The notes beneath the pieces are model-generated. The model was not told the origin of the DNA, made no database searches, and worked only from the letters and a program-made list of their open reading frames with translations. The position numbers and the translations under genes are program-made. 24,021 nt of DNA from a virus (lineage: Duplodnaviria; Heunggongvirae; Uroviricota; Caudoviricetes), in the IMG/VR virus record IMGVR_UViG_638341084_000025. One strand, given 5' to 3'. This document shows, in pieces, positions 3,183 through 8,976 of the stretch (positions within the stretch are counted from its first letter, which is position 1; each line of letters begins with the position of its first letter).

Positions 3183-3292
3183 GTATATTTATCTCATGGC
3201 TTGTTCTGATTATTTCGGTGGCCTGCGCTATTGGGATTATGCGAATTATTCATTCAATAAAAAAGATTGAACGCTTTTTCACTGGCGAATAA
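3179..3292 (+). CDS. Small hydrophobic peptide (37 aa), single TM; below ORF-track cutoff
   Basis: ATG 3179-3181 overlaps the upstream stop TGA 3180-3182 (ATGA coupling); translation MSIFISWLVLIISVACAIGIMRIIHSIKKIERFFTGE is a hydrophobic helix followed by a basic tail. Locally AT-rich. Confidence 0.3.
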   Translation: MSIFISWLVLIISVACAIGIMRIIHSIKKIERFFTGE

Positions 3293-3378
3293 CAGAGCAA
3301 ATAAAACCACAGATTAAATAAGAAAATGTAAAAACAATCCGCATTCGCGGAGGTATTCGCACACGCCAAGGAGGCGTA

Positions 3379-3582
3379 ATGGCAATTAAGCATTTTCCTG
3401 TCGTTCGTTTTACCTCCAGAGGGCGNGAATACGAAGTCGACGAACGCCTGATTACCACAATCGACAAACACCGTTCAGAAAAGGATGCACATCACATCTA
3501 TCTCACTGACGGCACTTACTTCTGCGCCACGAATGTGGTGCGGGTGAACCTTATCCGACAGGTACAGGAGTCACGCAGATGA
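3379..3582 (+). CDS. Hypothetical early-region protein (67 aa)
   Basis: Strong RBS AAGGAGG before ATG 3379; ATGA-coupled to the next ORF. Contains one N (3426). Confidence 0.5.
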   Translation: MAIKHFPVVRFTSRGXEYEVDERLITTIDKHRSEKDAHHIYLTDGTYFCATNVVRVNLIRQVQESRR

Positions 3583-4120: not shown

Positions 4121-4152
4121 GAAACCAGAACATGCACACACAAAAAAACCGC

Positions 4153-4181
4153 TTGCCATGCCGCAATCAGTCAGGTTACAT
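4153..4181 (+). promoter_or_regulatory. Candidate sigma70 promoter (TTGCCA-17 nt-TTACAT)
   Basis: -35 TTGCCA 4153-4158, 17-nt spacer, -10 TTACAT 4176-4181; by hexamer match only. Confidence 0.3.
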
Positions 4182-4187
4182 TTCCGC

Positions 4188-4263
4188 TGCACCTCACAAA
4201 ACGGGTGCCGGGTTTCGCAGCCTGCTGACTACACAAGCGCACAACCGCGCCAGCGGTTTTTTT
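4188..4263 (+). ncRNA. Candidate ~76-nt small RNA: 5' hairpin plus intrinsic terminator
   Basis: Lies between the candidate promoter and the terminator; hairpin GCACC(4189-4193)/GGTGC(4204-4208); no ribosome-binding site or credible ORF inside; carries repeats GTTTCGCAGC and ACTACACAAG that recur in the downstream leader. Confidence 0.25.
4243..4263 (+). terminator. Rho-independent terminator
   Basis: Stem AACCGC(4243-4248)/GCGGTT(4253-4258), 4-nt loop, then a run of seven T (4257-4263). Confidence 0.55.
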
Positions 4264-4275
4264 GTGCGTACTGTA

Positions 4276-4304
4276 TTGCCACGTTTTTTTCGCGTCAGAA
4301 TTAT
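4276..4304 (+). promoter_or_regulatory. Candidate second promoter (TTGCCA-17 nt-AATTAT) for the ORF76/ORF121/A transcript
   Basis: Same -35 hexamer as the upstream candidate promoter; located just after the terminator. Confidence 0.25.
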
Positions 4305-4442
4305 GGCGGGGCGTACGGGGCCGACTTCGGTCGGGCCGGGTTCTTGTGTAGCCGGTACTGCGAACCTCGTACGTCTCGCCACCCACAGTTTCGCAGCTCT
4401 GGATGGTGAGTTTTCACAACTTACTACACAAGGGGCCACACC

Positions 4443-4673
4443 ATGGCAAACCGCAAACCACACCGCGCTATCGCGGAGCGTCGTCACATCCAGACTGAAA
4501 TCAACCGCAGACTTTCCCGCGCATCACGCGTCGCGCAAATCATGCACATCAATATGTTGCATGAGCGCAGCCACGCACTATCAAACATTTATTCCGCCTC
4601 TGTTTTCAGCTATCTGGCGGATGATCTGCACGAGCTTCAACAGCTCATCCAGCAGCAAAACAAACTCCATTAA
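4443..4673 (+). CDS. Hypothetical small basic protein (76 aa)
   Basis: ATG 4443 with AAGGGG at 7-nt spacing; Arg/His-rich, no Cys; no family recognised. Confidence 0.4.
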   Translation: MANRKPHRAIAERRHIQTEINRRLSRASRVAQIMHINMLHERSHALSNIYSASVFSYLADDLHELQQLIQQQNKLH

Positions 4674-4745
4674 TTCCTGTTCCGGGCCTTTCCTGCACCT
4701 TGCGGCGGGAGGCCTTCGCACATCTGTAACAAGAGGATTGCCGCA

Positions 4746-5111
4746 ATGATTCTCGCCAACGACTTTCTTGAATACCTGCTCAACACAGAACGTGATCTTG
4801 CCGCTCGCGTGCGTGATCGTTATGACATGTACCTGAAATCCCTGCCTGTACCGCAGCTCGCTGACGGAAAGATTGTTATTGATGGTCGCTACATGATTGA
4901 CAGCCACGAGGGAAATTACAGGCTTTACCGCATTGAAGGTGGCACCCCGTCCGTTATTGGCATTTACCAGCGCCCATCCTCTGCAATCGTCGATGTGATT
5001 GCCGACAGCATCCGCATCACACATCGCCATGCCGACACAGAAGACACCGTGCTGGAAATTCAGCGGCTGGCTACAGTCTGCCGCGACACCCTGAATGGCA
5101 TGACGAAGTAA
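4746..5111 (+). CDS. Hypothetical protein (121 aa) immediately upstream of A
   Basis: Intact ORF ending 6 nt before the A start; globular-looking composition. Confidence 0.5.
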   Translation: MILANDFLEYLLNTERDLAARVRDRYDMYLKSLPVPQLADGKIVIDGRYMIDSHEGNYRLYRIEGGTPSVIGIYQRPSSAIVDVIADSIRITHRHADTEDTVLEIQRLATVCRDTLNGMTK

Positions 5112-5117
5112 ATCACT

Positions 5118-7940
5118 ATGACGGCAGAGTATATCAGGGACTGGCAACAACCGCGCCACGCAGTGGGGCGTGAAGGAACGGAGATCCCCGCTCCTGAATC
5201 CGCGCTTTCCTCCTGGCTGGATGCCTACCGGGTAGAGAACGAACGCCGCCAGGAAATGGCTGATGCGGCGTTCTCCGCCACGCCGCTGGGCAACCTGATT
5301 AATAAAAGCCTGGACGCACAGGAAAAACAGGACAAAACCATCACACTGGCAGGAGACGCCAGAAAACAGGCACGTGGCGCGGTGGATGAAGCCATGGCCT
5401 CACTGCGCCTGCTGCCGTCCTATCTGCGCGATCCGCTTATTCGCCACCTCTCCTTCCTGCGCAAAAAACAGGAAGCCGATCGCCGGAAAGGCAAAAAGAG
5501 CTGGCAGGCTGAACGCTACGCGTGCGGAACCCTGCGCAAAATATTCGAACGTCTGGACCGCACCGACCACCGCTGGCTGACACCGGGTTATCGCTCCCTT
5601 GCCGGACGCGAACGCCTGGATGATTTGCTTTACCTGCCGCAGCTCAACAAACACCAGATACAGACGCTGGCCACCATGACGGCGGCGATGTTCAGCAGCA
5701 CCTTCGAAAAACTCTGCGATGGCTTTGGCGCGACTGATGGCGAGCTGACCATGGATGTAACGCTGAAGGCTTATCAGATGCTGGCCCGCATGGCGTTACA
5801 CCTGCACGCCATGCCTCCACATTATGACGCACTGACAACAGACAAAGACCGGAGGAACGAACCGGACACGGAGCTGCTGCCGGGCGCAATCCTTCGCCTG
5901 ACCTGTGCGGAATGGTGGAAACGCAAACTGTGGCTGTTACGTTGTGAGTGGCGGGAAGAACAACTCCGCGCCGCCTGTCTGGTTTCCAGAAAAACATCCC
6001 CCTATCTGAGCCAGGACGCGTTAAGCGAGTTTCGCGCACAGCGCGAGAAAACGCGCGATTTCCTGAAAAGTTTCATGCTGGAAAATGAAGACGGGTTCAC
6101 GATTGATCTCGAGACGGTGTATTACGCGGGAGTAAGTAACCCGGTTCACCGTAAGGCAGAAATGATGGCCACCATGAAGGGACTGGAACTTCTGGCCGAA
6201 GCCCGTGGCGACAGAGCGGTGTTTCTGACCGTCACCTGCCCGTCAAAATACCACGCAACAACGGAGAACGGTCATCCGAACCCCAAATGGAACGGGGCCA
6301 CCATGCGCGACTCCAGCGATTACCTGGTTAACACGTTTTTTGCGGCGGTCCGCAAAAAACTGAACCGCGACGGCCTGCGCTGGTATGGCATCCGCACGGT
6401 GGAGCCTCACCATGACGGCACTGTGCACTGGCATATGATGGTCTTTGCACATCCGGACGAGATTGAAACCATCGTGTCCCACGTCTGCGATATTGCCATT
6501 CAGGAGGACCGCCACGAGCTGGGCGATGACATAACTCCGCGTTTTAAGGCGGAGTATGTCGACGGCTCAAAAGGCACACCAACCAGCTACATCGCCACCT
6601 ACATCGGAAAGAACCTGGACAGCCGCGCCGTGGATGGCATCGACCCGAAAACGGGCAAGCCACGCGTTGACCACGAAACAGGTAAATCAATGGCCGAGAG
6701 CGTGGAGCGCGCCATCGGCTGGGCGCGCCTTCACCGGGTCCGTCAGTTCCAGTTCTTTGGCATCCCCTCCCGTCAGGTGTGGCGTGAACTGCGCCGCCTT
6801 GCCAGCCAGATGGCACGCAATCCGGAAGGCCCGCAACGGCTGAAAGATGATGCAATGGATGCGGTACTCGCTGCCGCCGATGCCGGGTGTTTTGCCACCT
6901 ACATTGAAAAACAGGGTGGCGTGCTTGTTCCACGCAAGGACTACCTGATTCGCACCGCCTACGACCTCGCAGATGAGCTGAACGATTACGGCGAACAGAG
7001 CGTACAGATTTACGGGATCTGGTCACCACTCATCGGGGAATCCTCCCGTGTGTGCACGCATCCGGATAACTGGAAGCTGGTAAGACGTAAACCAGAACCG
7101 GAAGACAACGCCCACGAAAATGGTTTTGACCTTCAGGGCGGCCCTGCCGCCCCTTGGACTCGTGGCAATAACTGTCCCCGTGTACAGGAAACAGGCAACA
7201 ACGGGACAGAACAGCCGGAAGAACGGCCAGCACCGTGGCCGCAGCTTCCTGACGGCGTTGAAGTAAATGAATGGATGCGCTCACTGAAACGGCACGAACG
7301 CCGGGCGCTGATGCGTTCGCTTCGTGACAAACAGGCAAAAAACAGCAGCGATGAAATGCAGAACTGGACACAGAGCCGCAAACAGCAGCGGCCTTTGCCT
7401 GATAACCACGAGTTACTCGCTAAAGAATGGCGGGAGTCTGCTGAATCTCTCGGCCTGCATATCGGTGAACAACAGATGCAGCACCTGTTACGGGGCGGCA
7501 GTCTGTACGTTGACGGCAGCATCATTGCACCGCAGGGATTTGAAATTGTACGCAAACCGGATACCCGCCCGGACAGCCGAATCACGCAGCTCTGGCAGCG
7601 TCTGAGCCGTAATCATGGCGTAAGCAGCACGGAGATCCGCCATAACCCGGTCGCCAGCTATCTGGCACAGCTGGGGGCATCAGACCCTGAAGCCGCCGCA
7701 CGCCTGGCATCCACACTTCAGCAGGACCAGAACACCATGAAAACACCCGTTACCGTGCTTTCTGACATGCTGCGCGCCATCCGCGACGCAGAGCACGCAC
7801 AGAGAATCAGTGAAACCACTGAACGCGCCAGCCGCAAAGCAGACCTGCTGCGGGGTGGCCTGACCAGTGGAAACAAAAAACAGACAGAAACGGGACTCAC
7901 GAATCCCGTAAATGAGCAAAAAACGCGCAGCGATATATGA
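5118..7940 (+). CDS. A: Replication initiation endonuclease, P2 gpA family (HUH rolling-circle initiator)
   Basis: 940 aa; HUH-type motif VHWHMMVF and paired active-site tyrosines YIATYIGK as in P2 A; position after the early genes. The C-terminal ~300 aa is low-complexity and appears to extend beyond P2 A (761 aa from memory). Confidence 0.85.
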   Translation: MTAEYIRDWQQPRHAVGREGTEIPAPESALSSWLDAYRVENERRQEMADAAFSATPLGNLINKSLDAQEKQDKTITLAGDARKQARGAVDEAMASLRLLPSYLRDPLIRHLSFLRKKQEADRRKGKKSWQAERYACGTLRKIFERLDRTDHRWLTPGYRSLAGRERLDDLLYLPQLNKHQIQTLATMTAAMFSSTFEKLCDGFGATDGELTMDVTLKAYQMLARMALHLHAMPPHYDALTTDKDRRNEPDTELLPGAILRLTCAEWWKRKLWLLRCEWREEQLRAACLVSRKTSPYLSQDALSEFRAQREKTRDFLKSFMLENEDGFTIDLETVYYAGVSNPVHRKAEMMATMKGLELLAEARGDRAVFLTVTCPSKYHATTENGHPNPKWNGATMRDSSDYLVNTFFAAVRKKLNRDGLRWYGIRTVEPHHDGTVHWHMMVFAHPDEIETIVSHVCDIAIQEDRHELGDDITPRFKAEYVDGSKGTPTSYIATYIGKNLDSRAVDGIDPKTGKPRVDHETGKSMAESVERAIGWARLHRVRQFQFFGIPSRQVWRELRRLASQMARNPEGPQRLKDDAMDAVLAAADAGCFATYIEKQGGVLVPRKDYLIRTAYDLADELNDYGEQSVQIYGIWSPLIGESSRVCTHPDNWKLVRRKPEPEDNAHENGFDLQGGPAAPWTRGNNCPRVQETGNNGTEQPEERPAPWPQLPDGVEVNEWMRSLKRHERRALMRSLRDKQAKNSSDEMQNWTQSRKQQRPLPDNHELLAKEWRESAESLGLHIGEQQMQHLLRGGSLYVDGSIIAPQGFEIVRKPDTRPDSRITQLWQRLSRNHGVSSTEIRHNPVASYLAQLGASDPEAAARLASTLQQDQNTMKTPVTVLSDMLRAIRDAEHAQRISETTERASRKADLLRGGLTSGNKKQTETGLTNPVNEQKTRSDI

Positions 7941-8016: not shown

Positions 8017-8976
8017 ATGAAAATTTACATCGACGACGGCTCCACCAACATCAAGCTGGCATGGACTGAGAACGGCGAACGCCGCAACGCCATCAGCCCG
8101 AACAGCTTCAAGTCGGAATGGTCTGCGCCGTTCGGTGGCTCGCAGCCTGCTAACTACATGCTTGATGGCGTGCGCTATGGTTTTGATCCGGTCAGCGATC
8201 GCTTTGTCCAGACGACCGACACGCAATACCAGTACAGCGATGTGAATGTCATTGCCATTCATCACGCGCTGGTCAAATCAGACATCACGCCACAGGAAGT
8301 GGATGTGGTTGTTACCCTGCCACTGAGCGAATATTTCGACACAAACGCACAGCCGGACATGGCCAACATCAACCGCAAAAAAGCGAACGTCATGCGCCCG
8401 GTGGAGTACCAGAACGGCGAAGCATTCACTATCCGTAACGTACGGGTTATGCCTGAATCCATTCCGGCTGGCTTTAAAGCACTGGCTGACATGAGTCCGT
8501 TTGAATCCCTGCTGATTGTGGATTTGGGCGGAACCACGCTGGATGTGGCAAAGGTTCAGGGGCAACTGGCAGGTATCAGCCAGGTGTTTTGCGATCCACA
8601 CGTAGGCGTTTCTCTTATGGCCGATGCCGTACTGTCGGTGATGGCCACTAACGGTATGCGCACCAGTCACCACATCGCCAATACCATTATCGAACATCGC
8701 CATAATGAAGCCTGGCTGCGCCAGCACATCCACAATGACGCGCATTACGCCAGCCTGATGGCGGTTATTCGTGAAAAGGAAGAAACACTGAAACAACGCG
8801 TGATCCGCGCGCTGGCGGTTTTTTCGGGTTACGGGCGGGTGATGGTTGTCGGTGGCGGGGCGGAGATTGTGGCACCCGCTATCCGCGAAGCCTGCGGAGT
8901 TAATGCGACTTTCATCGCGGACGGGGTGCCACANTTTGCTCTGGTTAATGGGCTGTACGCAATGGACAAGGAGTAA
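8017..8976 (+). CDS. parM: Actin-like segregation ATPase ParM/StbA
   Basis: 319 aa; MKIYIDDGSTNIKLAW, YSDVNVIAIHHAL, VMPESIPAG, LIVDLGGTTLD and VMVVGGGAEI closely follow the remembered plasmid R1 ParM sequence. One N at 8934. Confidence 0.85.
   Translation: MKIYIDDGSTNIKLAWTENGERRNAISPNSFKSEWSAPFGGSQPANYMLDGVRYGFDPVSDRFVQTTDTQYQYSDVNVIAIHHALVKSDITPQEVDVVVTLPLSEYFDTNAQPDMANINRKKANVMRPVEYQNGEAFTIRNVRVMPESIPAGFKALADMSPFESLLIVDLGGTTLDVAKVQGQLAGISQVFCDPHVGVSLMADAVLSVMATNGMRTSHHIANTIIEHRHNEAWLRQHIHNDAHYASLMAVIREKEETLKQRVIRALAVFSGYGRVMVVGGGAEIVAPAIREACGVNATFIADGVPXFALVNGLYAMDKE

Follow-up and report, generated by a model that had tools for sequence, protein, structure and literature searches.

A probable IsrK-C4 RNA immunity module before an epsilon-type antirepressor gene in the early operon of a P88-like prophage from the P2 family

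We analysed a stretch of 24,021 nucleotides (the window; IMG/VR record IMGVR_UViG_638341084_000025) that is 99.6% identical to Xuanwuvirus P88_4B11 and near phage P88 and Citrobacter phage Shae_phiSM, temperate phages of the P2 family (Peduoviridae). Its genes are ordered as integrase, C-type repressor and Cox; small early genes; a segment at 4121-4442 that carries RNA elements; ORF76, ORF121 and the replication gene A; and ParM-type partition genes. A sequence-only reading had described this segment as a GC-rich, structured, non-coding insert and remarked that P2 is not known to have an insert at this place; this is correct, as orf83 overlaps A in P2, and an Rfam search of the early regions of P2 and 186 found neither C4 nor isrK. 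A scan of the whole window with Rfam at curated thresholds, a check that the same reading had proposed, gave only two matches, isrK and the C4 antisense RNA, and both lie inside the segment; weak matches elsewhere in the scan (STnc410, anti-hemB and a small nucleolar RNA) were far under threshold and were disregarded. We are confident that the segment is an IsrK-C4 (seqA-CI, a1b1-c4) RNA immunity module, as in P1/P7, the satellite P4 and Gifsy-1, and we are equally confident that the prophage is P88-like and of the P2 family and has the module in its early operon, before a P4-epsilon-type antirepressor gene and A. The description as GC-rich fits the C4 part (64.8% G+C); for the segment overall it is marginal (55.3%, compared with 53.5% in the window).

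The IsrK-like small RNA lies at 4189-4263 on the plus strand (as do the promoter-like sites, the C4-like RNA, the pairing sites, the long reading frame, ORF76, ORF121 and A below) and matches the whole of the isrK model (RF01394, model positions 1-77 of 77, 64.1 bits against a gathering threshold of 50). Upstream of it, a consensus scan found a putative sigma-70-like promoter at 4153-4182 (TTGCCA-18-TACATT), already pointed out in the sequence-only reading, which is inside a long open reading frame (ORF; 4132-4749, described below). The predicted start from this promoter, at about 4189, coincides with where the IsrK-like RNA begins; neither hexamer varies among 21 unique P88-type modules, and the position relative to the isrK/c4-a1b1 element is the same as that of the annotated P1 promoter P1c4 (formerly P51b). 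The RNA is laid out as a 5′ hairpin, a hairpin that presents a site called a1, a single-stranded site b1, and a putative intrinsic terminator, and its predicted fold has three hairpins. The earlier proposal of a unit of about 76 nt ending in an intrinsic terminator corresponds to this match: our scan found, at 4243-4258, a terminator-like hairpin with a T run after it; this hairpin and the promoter-like site are both conserved. As judged from the sequence, this region is the equivalent of P4 seqA and of the a1/b1 region of P1.

The C4-family antisense RNA follows at 4299-4386 and matches RF01695 over its full length (model positions 1-87 of 87, 83.2 bits against a gathering threshold of 45, E = 2.8e-15); on this match we take it as the equivalent of P4 CI and Salmonella STnc1160. 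The C4 fold has a 17-bp closing stem, a UUCG hairpin at 4319-4337, a second hairpin that carries the loop b′, a single-stranded junction a′, and a 3′ CCACCC tail. An energy fold made independently recovers this structure, with a minimum free energy (MFE) of -47.7 kcal/mol (z = -4.46; 0 of 200 shuffles as stable). The UUCG hairpin had been noticed before at these positions as a free-standing hairpin of a leader, and it is instead one arm of the 88-nt C4 fold. Just two features relevant to processing are visible in the element, its 3′ CCACCC tail and its conserved 5′ flank. In P1, the C4 RNA is excised from a longer transcript by RNase P and is a trans-acting repressor. Processing of the P4 CI RNA from a longer transcript has been described as well (PMC10111431).

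The spacer between the two RNAs and a tRNA-like stem each suggested a candidate that we rejected. The spacer (4264-4298) holds TACTGTAT, a perfect LexA half-site without its second half, which is kept only among P88-type modules. We found no LexA box near the module, matches to CTGT-N8-ACAG in the window were at chance level, and the TACTGTAT half-site is not conserved in lambdoid modules, so LexA control was dropped. The stem GGCGGGG...CGCCACCC looks tRNA-like, but an ARAGORN scan of the window for tRNA and tmRNA was negative.

Two 10-nt direct repeats connect these RNAs to the start of the next gene. As the sequence-only reading had noted, GTTTCGCAGC occurs at 4212-4221 and 4388-4397, and ACTACACAAG at 4228-4237 and 4423-4432; neither has another copy in the 24-kb window, and the second repeat has a single reverse complement, CTTGTGTAG at 4343-4351. 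When 4121-4442 was shuffled 5000 times with dinucleotides preserved, 14 of the shuffles had at least two direct 10-mer repeats, and 16 had a 9-mer present twice in direct and once in inverted orientation. The complement of the first repeat had been overlooked: CTGCGAA at 4358-4364 is antisense to TTCGCAG at 4214-4220 and 4390-4396. The sites therein can be named by the scheme used for C4 systems. In the IsrK-like RNA, a1 (TTCGCAG, 4214-4220) occupies the loop and 3′ side of the second hairpin and is complementary to a′ at 7 of 7 positions, and b1 (CTACACAAG, 4229-4237) is in the single-stranded part and complementary to the b′ loop, with a local duplex of -14.7 kcal/mol. In the C4-like RNA, b′ (CTTGTGTAG, 4343-4351) is the loop of the second hairpin, antisense to b1 and b2, and a′ (CTGCGAA, 4358-4364) is the single-stranded junction, antisense to a1 and a2. 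The target a2 (TTCGCAG, 4390-4396) is located just 3′ of C4, in the same place as the annotated a2 of P1, and the target b2 (CTACACAAG, 4424-4432) runs into the Shine-Dalgarno (SD) sequence AAGGGG (4430-4435) of ORF76, which is what the earlier reading meant when it described the second copy of ACTACACAAG as abutting this SD. The b′:b2 duplex has an energy of -17.7 kcal/mol, two G-U pairs extend it into the SD, and b2 is 10 nt from the ATG of ORF76, the same distance as from P1 b2 to icd. Exact complements of the C4 loop and junction are therefore present on both sides of C4, and b2 is at the ribosome-binding site (RBS) of the next gene, as expected of the C4 family.

The covariation of these sites across phages carries the argument further. 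Rfam models locate the isrK and C4 tandem in P88, Shae_phiSM and four lambdoid phages, and also in P4 and P1; set against one another, the C4 loop and its sites in IsrK and beside the RBS differ among phages and always match within a phage, and the C4 junction and its two targets show the same between-phage variation and the same within-phage match (a1 co-changes with a′ and a2 across the other specificity types). P88 itself, for example, has a specificity that differs from that of the window (b′ CTGTAGTTG, a′ GTGGAAA). We searched viral contigs for the pattern of the invariant C4 core and obtained 120 loci, which reduced to 70 unique modules and 24 loop/junction combinations; eight of the 24 were chance pattern matches without complementarity, and the other 16 were complementary at fixed positions. 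We then compared cognate with non-cognate complementarity formally for 14 specificity combinations, a test preferred over alignment-based pair counting because MAFFT shifted the lambdoid b2 sites by three columns. The b′ loop matched its own downstream site at a mean of 7.9 of 8 positions (non-cognate 5.4) and its own upstream site at 7.4 of 8 (non-cognate 5.2), with perfect non-cognate matches in 0 of 172 comparisons for each; a′ matched either of its sites at a mean of 6.9 of 7 positions (non-cognate 3.8-4.3; perfect non-cognate matches in 0 of 152). Within the 21 unique P88-type modules, strongly variable columns are concentrated in the six pairing sites (27 of 60 columns, compared with 18 of 235 elsewhere; Fisher p = 1e-10). 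Since the C4 loop, the IsrK site and the RBS-adjoining site change together across types, the pairing logic is under selection. The idea of the sequence-only reading that CTTGTGTAG counters the sequence next to the RBS, and that the copy in the small RNA competes for it, thus gains support in its core logic from this three-way covariation; it is essentially the known scheme of C4/IsrK systems, in which a′/b′ face a1/b1 and a2/b2.

The two b sites are not equal in this respect. The b1 site often carries C-to-T changes that preserve G-U pairs to b′, and b2 stays Watson-Crick (loci L005, L008, L020, L030 and L071); this wobble pattern fits a reading in which b2 would be the tighter, primary target and b1 in IsrK a weaker competitor. 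Loop and junction types assort independently among viral contigs: the b′ type TTTGGTTG is found with a′ GTTCCAA, CTGCGAA or GTGGAAA, so the specificities recombine independently. One specificity type is imperfect (L102, L121 and L036), with b′ CTGCGTTTG, b1 CAAACGTAG with one G-U pair, and b2 CACACGTAG with one mismatch and one G-U pair.

The gene whose RBS adjoins b2, ORF76 (4443-4673), encodes a protein homologous to epsilon, the derepression (antirepressor) protein of P4: it matches the Derepression family (PF25738) at 32.5 bits against a cut-off of 27 and, in BLASTP, is 29% identical to P4 epsilon over 66 amino acids (E = 4e-9). RefSeq names it "derepression protein", and the gene is kept after the module in P2-family contigs. 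By analogy with the homologous systems, we infer that ORF76 is the first gene under control of the module. It is followed by ORF121 (4746-5111) and the replication gene A (5118-7940; Phage_GPA, PF05840, 431.9 bits), in an order kept in relatives, and both would probably be subject to polarity from the module. Profile searches gave no Ant-family matches for ORF76 or ORF121, and a similarity of ORF121 to P4 orf151 was not significant and was set aside. We also considered whether the epsilon-like allele tracks the C repressor of its own phage. The same ORF76 allele (96-100% identical) occurs beside C proteins of 100%, 46-48% and 29% identity, so that the ORF76/C4 type is independent of the C-repressor type and a pairing with the phage's own repressor only is unsupported. 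This independent assortment resembles the two separate immunity regions of P1 and looks like a modular heteroimmunity system.

Further downstream, the A protein has 940 amino acids, compared with 761 in P2, with the GPA domain at residues 179-503 and long N- and C-terminal extensions. After A, a ParM-type actin-like partition gene is located at 8017-8976 (StbA_N and ParM C-terminal domains, E = 1e-80 and 6e-67); in relatives, a partition partner is present as well. The gene hints that this P2-family phage, which carries an integrase, may pass through a plasmid-like phase. Ambiguous base(s) at about 3290-3430 give X in the translations of the ORFs at 3250-3471, 3279-3467 and 3379-3582.

The segment had been held to be without a credible ORF, and this does not stand. 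A reading frame of 205 amino acids (4132-4749), which we call Ash/Eta-like, matches Pfam Phage_ASH (PF10554) over residues 16-109, and it is conserved open in relatives. The ORF starts 11 nt past the upstream gene and 21 nt upstream of the internal promoter, passes through the IsrK-like RNA, the C4-like RNA and a2/b2, overlaps ORF76 in the +1 frame (frame offset 2 to ORF76), and stops 76 nt after ORF76, where its end and the start of ORF121 overlap as ATGA. Of 21 unique P88-type modules, 20 keep the frame open; across ORF76, it has no stops in 10 divergent alleles, compared with 1-5 in the third frame, and the ATGA ending is retained even where the next gene differs. In synonymous-recoding trials, the frame was open in 6.5% of trials for the window allele, and in 8.3% and 3.6% for the diverged codons of two other alleles. 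Amino-acid identity over the ORF76 overlap, among the most diverged alleles, is 53-60% in the long frame and 57-63% in the third frame; it is the openness of the long frame that is conserved, and not its protein sequence. We dropped the idea that this ORF is purely spurious, given the conservation of the frame in lambdoid and P88-type modules and the precedent of P4 eta, which, as summarised in PMC10111431 from Forti et al. (1999), starts upstream of the constitutive internal promoter and is translated from transcripts of the upstream promoter, and this translation prevents termination.

The Phage_ASH match itself, residues 16-109, covers exactly the DNA of both RNAs. Phage_ASH also matches the obsolete "cI protein" of P4 over the CI RNA (L012, 8168-8584, minus strand) and the 5′ extension of an annotated Rha antirepressor of Stx2a phage (L006, 1146-2297, is among the matched loci). 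The Phage_ASH "domain" is the protein shadow of two RNA genes in an Eta-like read-through ORF. PHROGs 995, 6928 and 821 ("transcriptional regulator") likewise match the conceptual translation of isrK-C4 RNA genes. In all of the lambdoid modules (L006, L007, L008, L009 and about 40 viral contigs), the AUG of the C4 5′ flank and the antirepressor gene share one frame, which is open for 53-360 codons upstream, through both RNAs; this implies, from the sequence pattern, nested long and short forms of the protein, like P4 eta and kil.

Among the known systems, the left operon of P4 comes nearest to the order isrK, C4, epsilon-like gene, small ORF and replication gene; the immunity region of P4 runs PLE, seqA, CI RNA, seqC, kil/eta, epsilon and on to alpha. 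The seqA region and CI RNA of P4 are found by the same Rfam models (isrK 60.8 bits, C4 74.9 bits; c4-a1b1 44.1 bits), an epsilon-family gene is followed there by a replication gene, and an internal promoter is inside a Phage_ASH-matching ORF that goes through both RNAs (PMC10111431). There are several differences. P4 is a satellite, whereas the element here is a whole P2-family phage; P4 has kil in first place, with epsilon starting about 245 nt downstream, whereas here the epsilon-like gene starts 57 nt after C4, with b2 on its RBS; kil is in frame within eta, whereas here the Eta-like ORF runs over the epsilon-like gene in another frame and ends on the start of the next gene; P4 has the alpha primase where the window has A (a GPA nickase); and the a′/b′ sequences differ.

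The immI region of P1/P7 has the same succession of promoter, a1, b1, c4, a2 and b2, with near-same spacing and 10 nt to the start of a first gene of about 75 codons; the annotated order in P1 is P2c4, P1c4, a1, b1, c4, a2, b2 and icd, with a2 beginning 4 nt after c4. It also has an antirepressor as its cargo and compensatory specificity variants, as between P1 and P7. It differs in that it has icd and ant, whereas ORF76 is unrelated to Icd and the window is without an Ant1/2 gene. The P1 locus scores 68.8 bits with C4, 51 with c4-a1b1 and 35 with isrK, the latter two on one overlapping upstream element, so the upstream element is c4-a1b1 in P1 and scores as isrK in the window. The scores of P1 and P4 together show that isrK, c4-a1b1 and seqA are one kind of element and that C4 and CI are another; Barquist et al. 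write of P4's IsrK-C4 immunity system, with IsrK equal to seqA and C4 to CI (PMC3632133).

The third comparison is Gifsy-1 of Salmonella (IsrK/orf45/anrP and STnc1160), where IsrK is the founding member of RF01394, occurs as terminated and read-through isoforms, and has a stable processed RNA (STnc1160) downstream and an antirepressor under control (PMC4825925). Compensatory mutations proved a helix there that joins the mid-part of IsrK to a position about 130 nt downstream and controls translation, and disrupting the a1:a′-like helix raised translation (PMC4825925, Table 1D). By its position this helix appears to be a1:a′, and the start of "orf45" appears to be, within 1 nt, the AUG in the C4 5′ flank; judged from other lambdoid modules, the Gifsy-1 antirepressor would be in frame with this AUG. 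Gifsy-1 differs in its lambdoid context and in an antirepressor of another family, and its published model is activation by IsrK, in which C4 is not named (PMC4825925). The other lambdoid modules (ST64B sb41, mEp460, Stx2a phages and 1720a-02) share about 70% nucleotide identity with the window, both Rfam matches and the three-way complementarity, but they lie between cII-like and replication O/P-like genes, and the antirepressor that they control is of the Rha type and shares the frame of the long ORF. These modules share with P4 the in-frame nesting of the first regulated gene, which the window does not.

The module is accordingly not novel: both RNAs are curated Rfam families, the mechanism is not new, and IsrK-C4 pairing has already been described for P4, P1/P7 and Gifsy-1 (PMC3632133, PMC4825925). 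This copy, located in a P2-family phage and not annotated before, belongs to a family that is well described, and for it we document the family membership, the architecture, the co-evolving complementarity, the conservation of the open frame and the homology of ORF76 to epsilon; its architectural twist is the overlap of the Eta-like frame with the epsilon-like gene, which is read in another frame.

Most likely, the IsrK-like RNA and the C4-type antisense RNA together gate translation of the antirepressor-like ORF76, in a scheme that takes from the homologous systems its promoter activity, RNA processing, block of translation and polarity, as well as the parts played by IsrK as a decoy and by translation of the Eta-like frame. 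The internal promoter (4153-4182) would give an IsrK-like RNA of about 75 nt, ended at its own terminator. Read-through transcripts would carry the C4-like RNA, to be excised as a stable species of about 80 nt (by RNase P in P1/P4). The a′ junction and b′ loop of C4 would then pair with a2 and b2, so that the RBS is covered and ORF76 stays untranslated, and polarity would curtail transcription into ORF121 and A. The a1/b1 sites of IsrK could compete for the same C4 sequences, in cis or in trans, and could so relieve repression. Transcripts from the upstream early promoter would include the start of the Eta/Ash-like ORF; ribosomes crossing the RNAs and their targets would make the early operon insensitive to C4, and would hand over to ORF121 and A at the ATGA overlap.

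Several observations weigh against this account. ORF76 shows no similarity to P1 Icd, so it is not an Icd homologue. The c4-a1b1 model (RF03163) reaches only a subthreshold score at 4176-4228 (20.9 bits against a gathering threshold of 46.7), the region being better described by the isrK model. In whole-molecule cofolding the gain from pairing of C4 with its targets was small (ΔΔG, the change in folding energy, of 0 to -3 kcal/mol); the C4 fold is very stable, which leaves little net gain, so binding must begin with loop contacts. Finally, the published read-outs of such modules differ: P1 shows a translational block with polarity, P4 premature transcription termination, and Gifsy-1 activation of downstream translation by short IsrK (PMC4825925), so that the direction and the dominant step (block, termination or activation) cannot be read from the sequence.

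One alternative that we regard as a real possibility, though short of an even chance, is that the module acts as in P4, where C4 would pair with a1/b1 and a2/b2 on the nascent transcript and cause premature termination before the replication gene; occlusion of the RBS would then be only a means of exposing a Rho-dependent terminator. P4 is the closest architecture, with its internal promoter inside an Eta-like ORF (PMC10111431), and ORF76 is an epsilon homologue; on the other side, a Rho-dependent site is not identifiable from sequence, and b2 overlaps the RBS exactly as in P1, where, according to the P1 annotation, translational repression is primary. Termination of the P4 kind and a translational block are compatible and not mutually exclusive.

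A second alternative takes the same module mainly as an ON switch of the Gifsy-1 type, in which a1/b1 and a′/b′ form a lock in cis, short IsrK, as it accumulates, opens it in trans, ORF76 is then made as an epsilon-like antirepressor with induction of the prophage, and repression by free C4 is secondary; we think this rather unlikely. The MFE fold of the whole leader (4189-4460) does pair a1:a′ and b1:b′ in cis, as such a lock would have it. The RBS of ORF76 is unpaired in this same fold, however, which means that the cis fold alone does not silence ORF76. In Gifsy-1, short IsrK raises downstream translation at least 100-fold and is required for induction (PMC4825925); P88 was chemically induced, and Sp13, which has an epsilon-like gene, is inducible by mitomycin with a repressor that lacks a cleavage motif (PMC6456863, PMC2669165). 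The match of b2 to b′, usually better than that of b1, and the confinement of G-U wobbles to b1 argue the other way, as does the genetics of P1 and P4, in which the C4/CI RNA is the repressor.

The version of the sequence-only reading, an independent small RNA gene plus a separate cis leader (4311-4445) that is driven by a second promoter and whose local hairpin element folds back on the repeat near the RBS, is very unlikely, although the complementarity it relied on is real. A second promoter-like site with the same -35 hexamer is indeed present (TTGCCA-17-AATTAT, 4276-4304, consensus scan), and it is its function that fails to convince. In P88 and Shae_phiSM, the closest relatives, the -35 reads TCGCCA, and lambdoid modules have a spacer that is 11 nt shorter; the -10 (AATTAT) coincides with the conserved 5′ flank of the C4 model; and a transcript beginning at about 4311 would lack the 5′ strand of the 17-bp C4 stem, the best-supported structure. 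For these reasons, we consider the site probably fortuitous and non-functional, and the homologous RNA of P1 and P4 is, besides, excised and trans-acting.

That the region simply encodes a protein, an Ash-family "transcriptional regulator", with incidental RNA-like features, is highly improbable: the Phage_ASH and PHROG matches, the conserved open frame and a coding sequence in one record speak for it, and they are outweighed by compensatory substitutions at the RNA level over three separated sites, by amino acids no better conserved than those of the third frame over ORF76, by the match of Phage_ASH to a P4 "protein" that is obsolete, and by inconsistent annotation among records.

The IsrK-C4 module is widespread. 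We found it in 1276 of 5426 complete E. coli genomes, including the ST131 and O157 lineages, with O157 copies 92% identical. Two RefSeq records that we examined carry "derepression protein" or nothing over the stretch, with the RNAs unannotated; in NC_049391, the long ORF is annotated (gp51) as a coding sequence for an Ash-family "transcriptional regulator", and other records are blank or have a minus-strand ORF. Among phage records, some place a doubtful "transcriptional regulator" or "ash family" gene over the region. The prophage in the E. coli genome NZ_CP025892 (L136), 100% identical over 4121-4700, has a replication endonuclease gene annotated as a pseudogene with an internal stop (from 2198), and this copy may be defective.

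Once the module is recognised, the apparently empty 320-bp gap of P88-like prophages is explained. Phage_ASH and the N-terminal extensions of many annotated Rha and antirepressor genes are translated RNA genes, which matters for annotation and for the clustering of the "Bro network". Asadulghani et al. noted that Sp13, a P2-like prophage of O157 Sakai, has a P4-epsilon-like gene, and suggested this gene as the cause of its unexpected induction by mitomycin (PMC2669165), and the module is a concrete candidate for the induction route of P2-like prophages with uncleavable repressors, such as Sp13 and P88. Taken jointly, and only tentatively, since we would sooner doubt this combination than expect it, the observations may describe a second, RNA-based immunity of P88- and Sp13-like phages that assorts apart from the C repressor and gates the epsilon-type antirepressor, and in which the balance of IsrK and C4, rather than repressor cleavage, would be the induction switch, the a′/b′ types would be heteroimmunity or anti-satellite alleles, and the Eta-like frame would be an overlapping ORF "translated for its own sake". 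If this is true, the out-of-frame Eta-like ORF would let transcripts from the early promoter express the replication genes, with the antirepressor bypassed.

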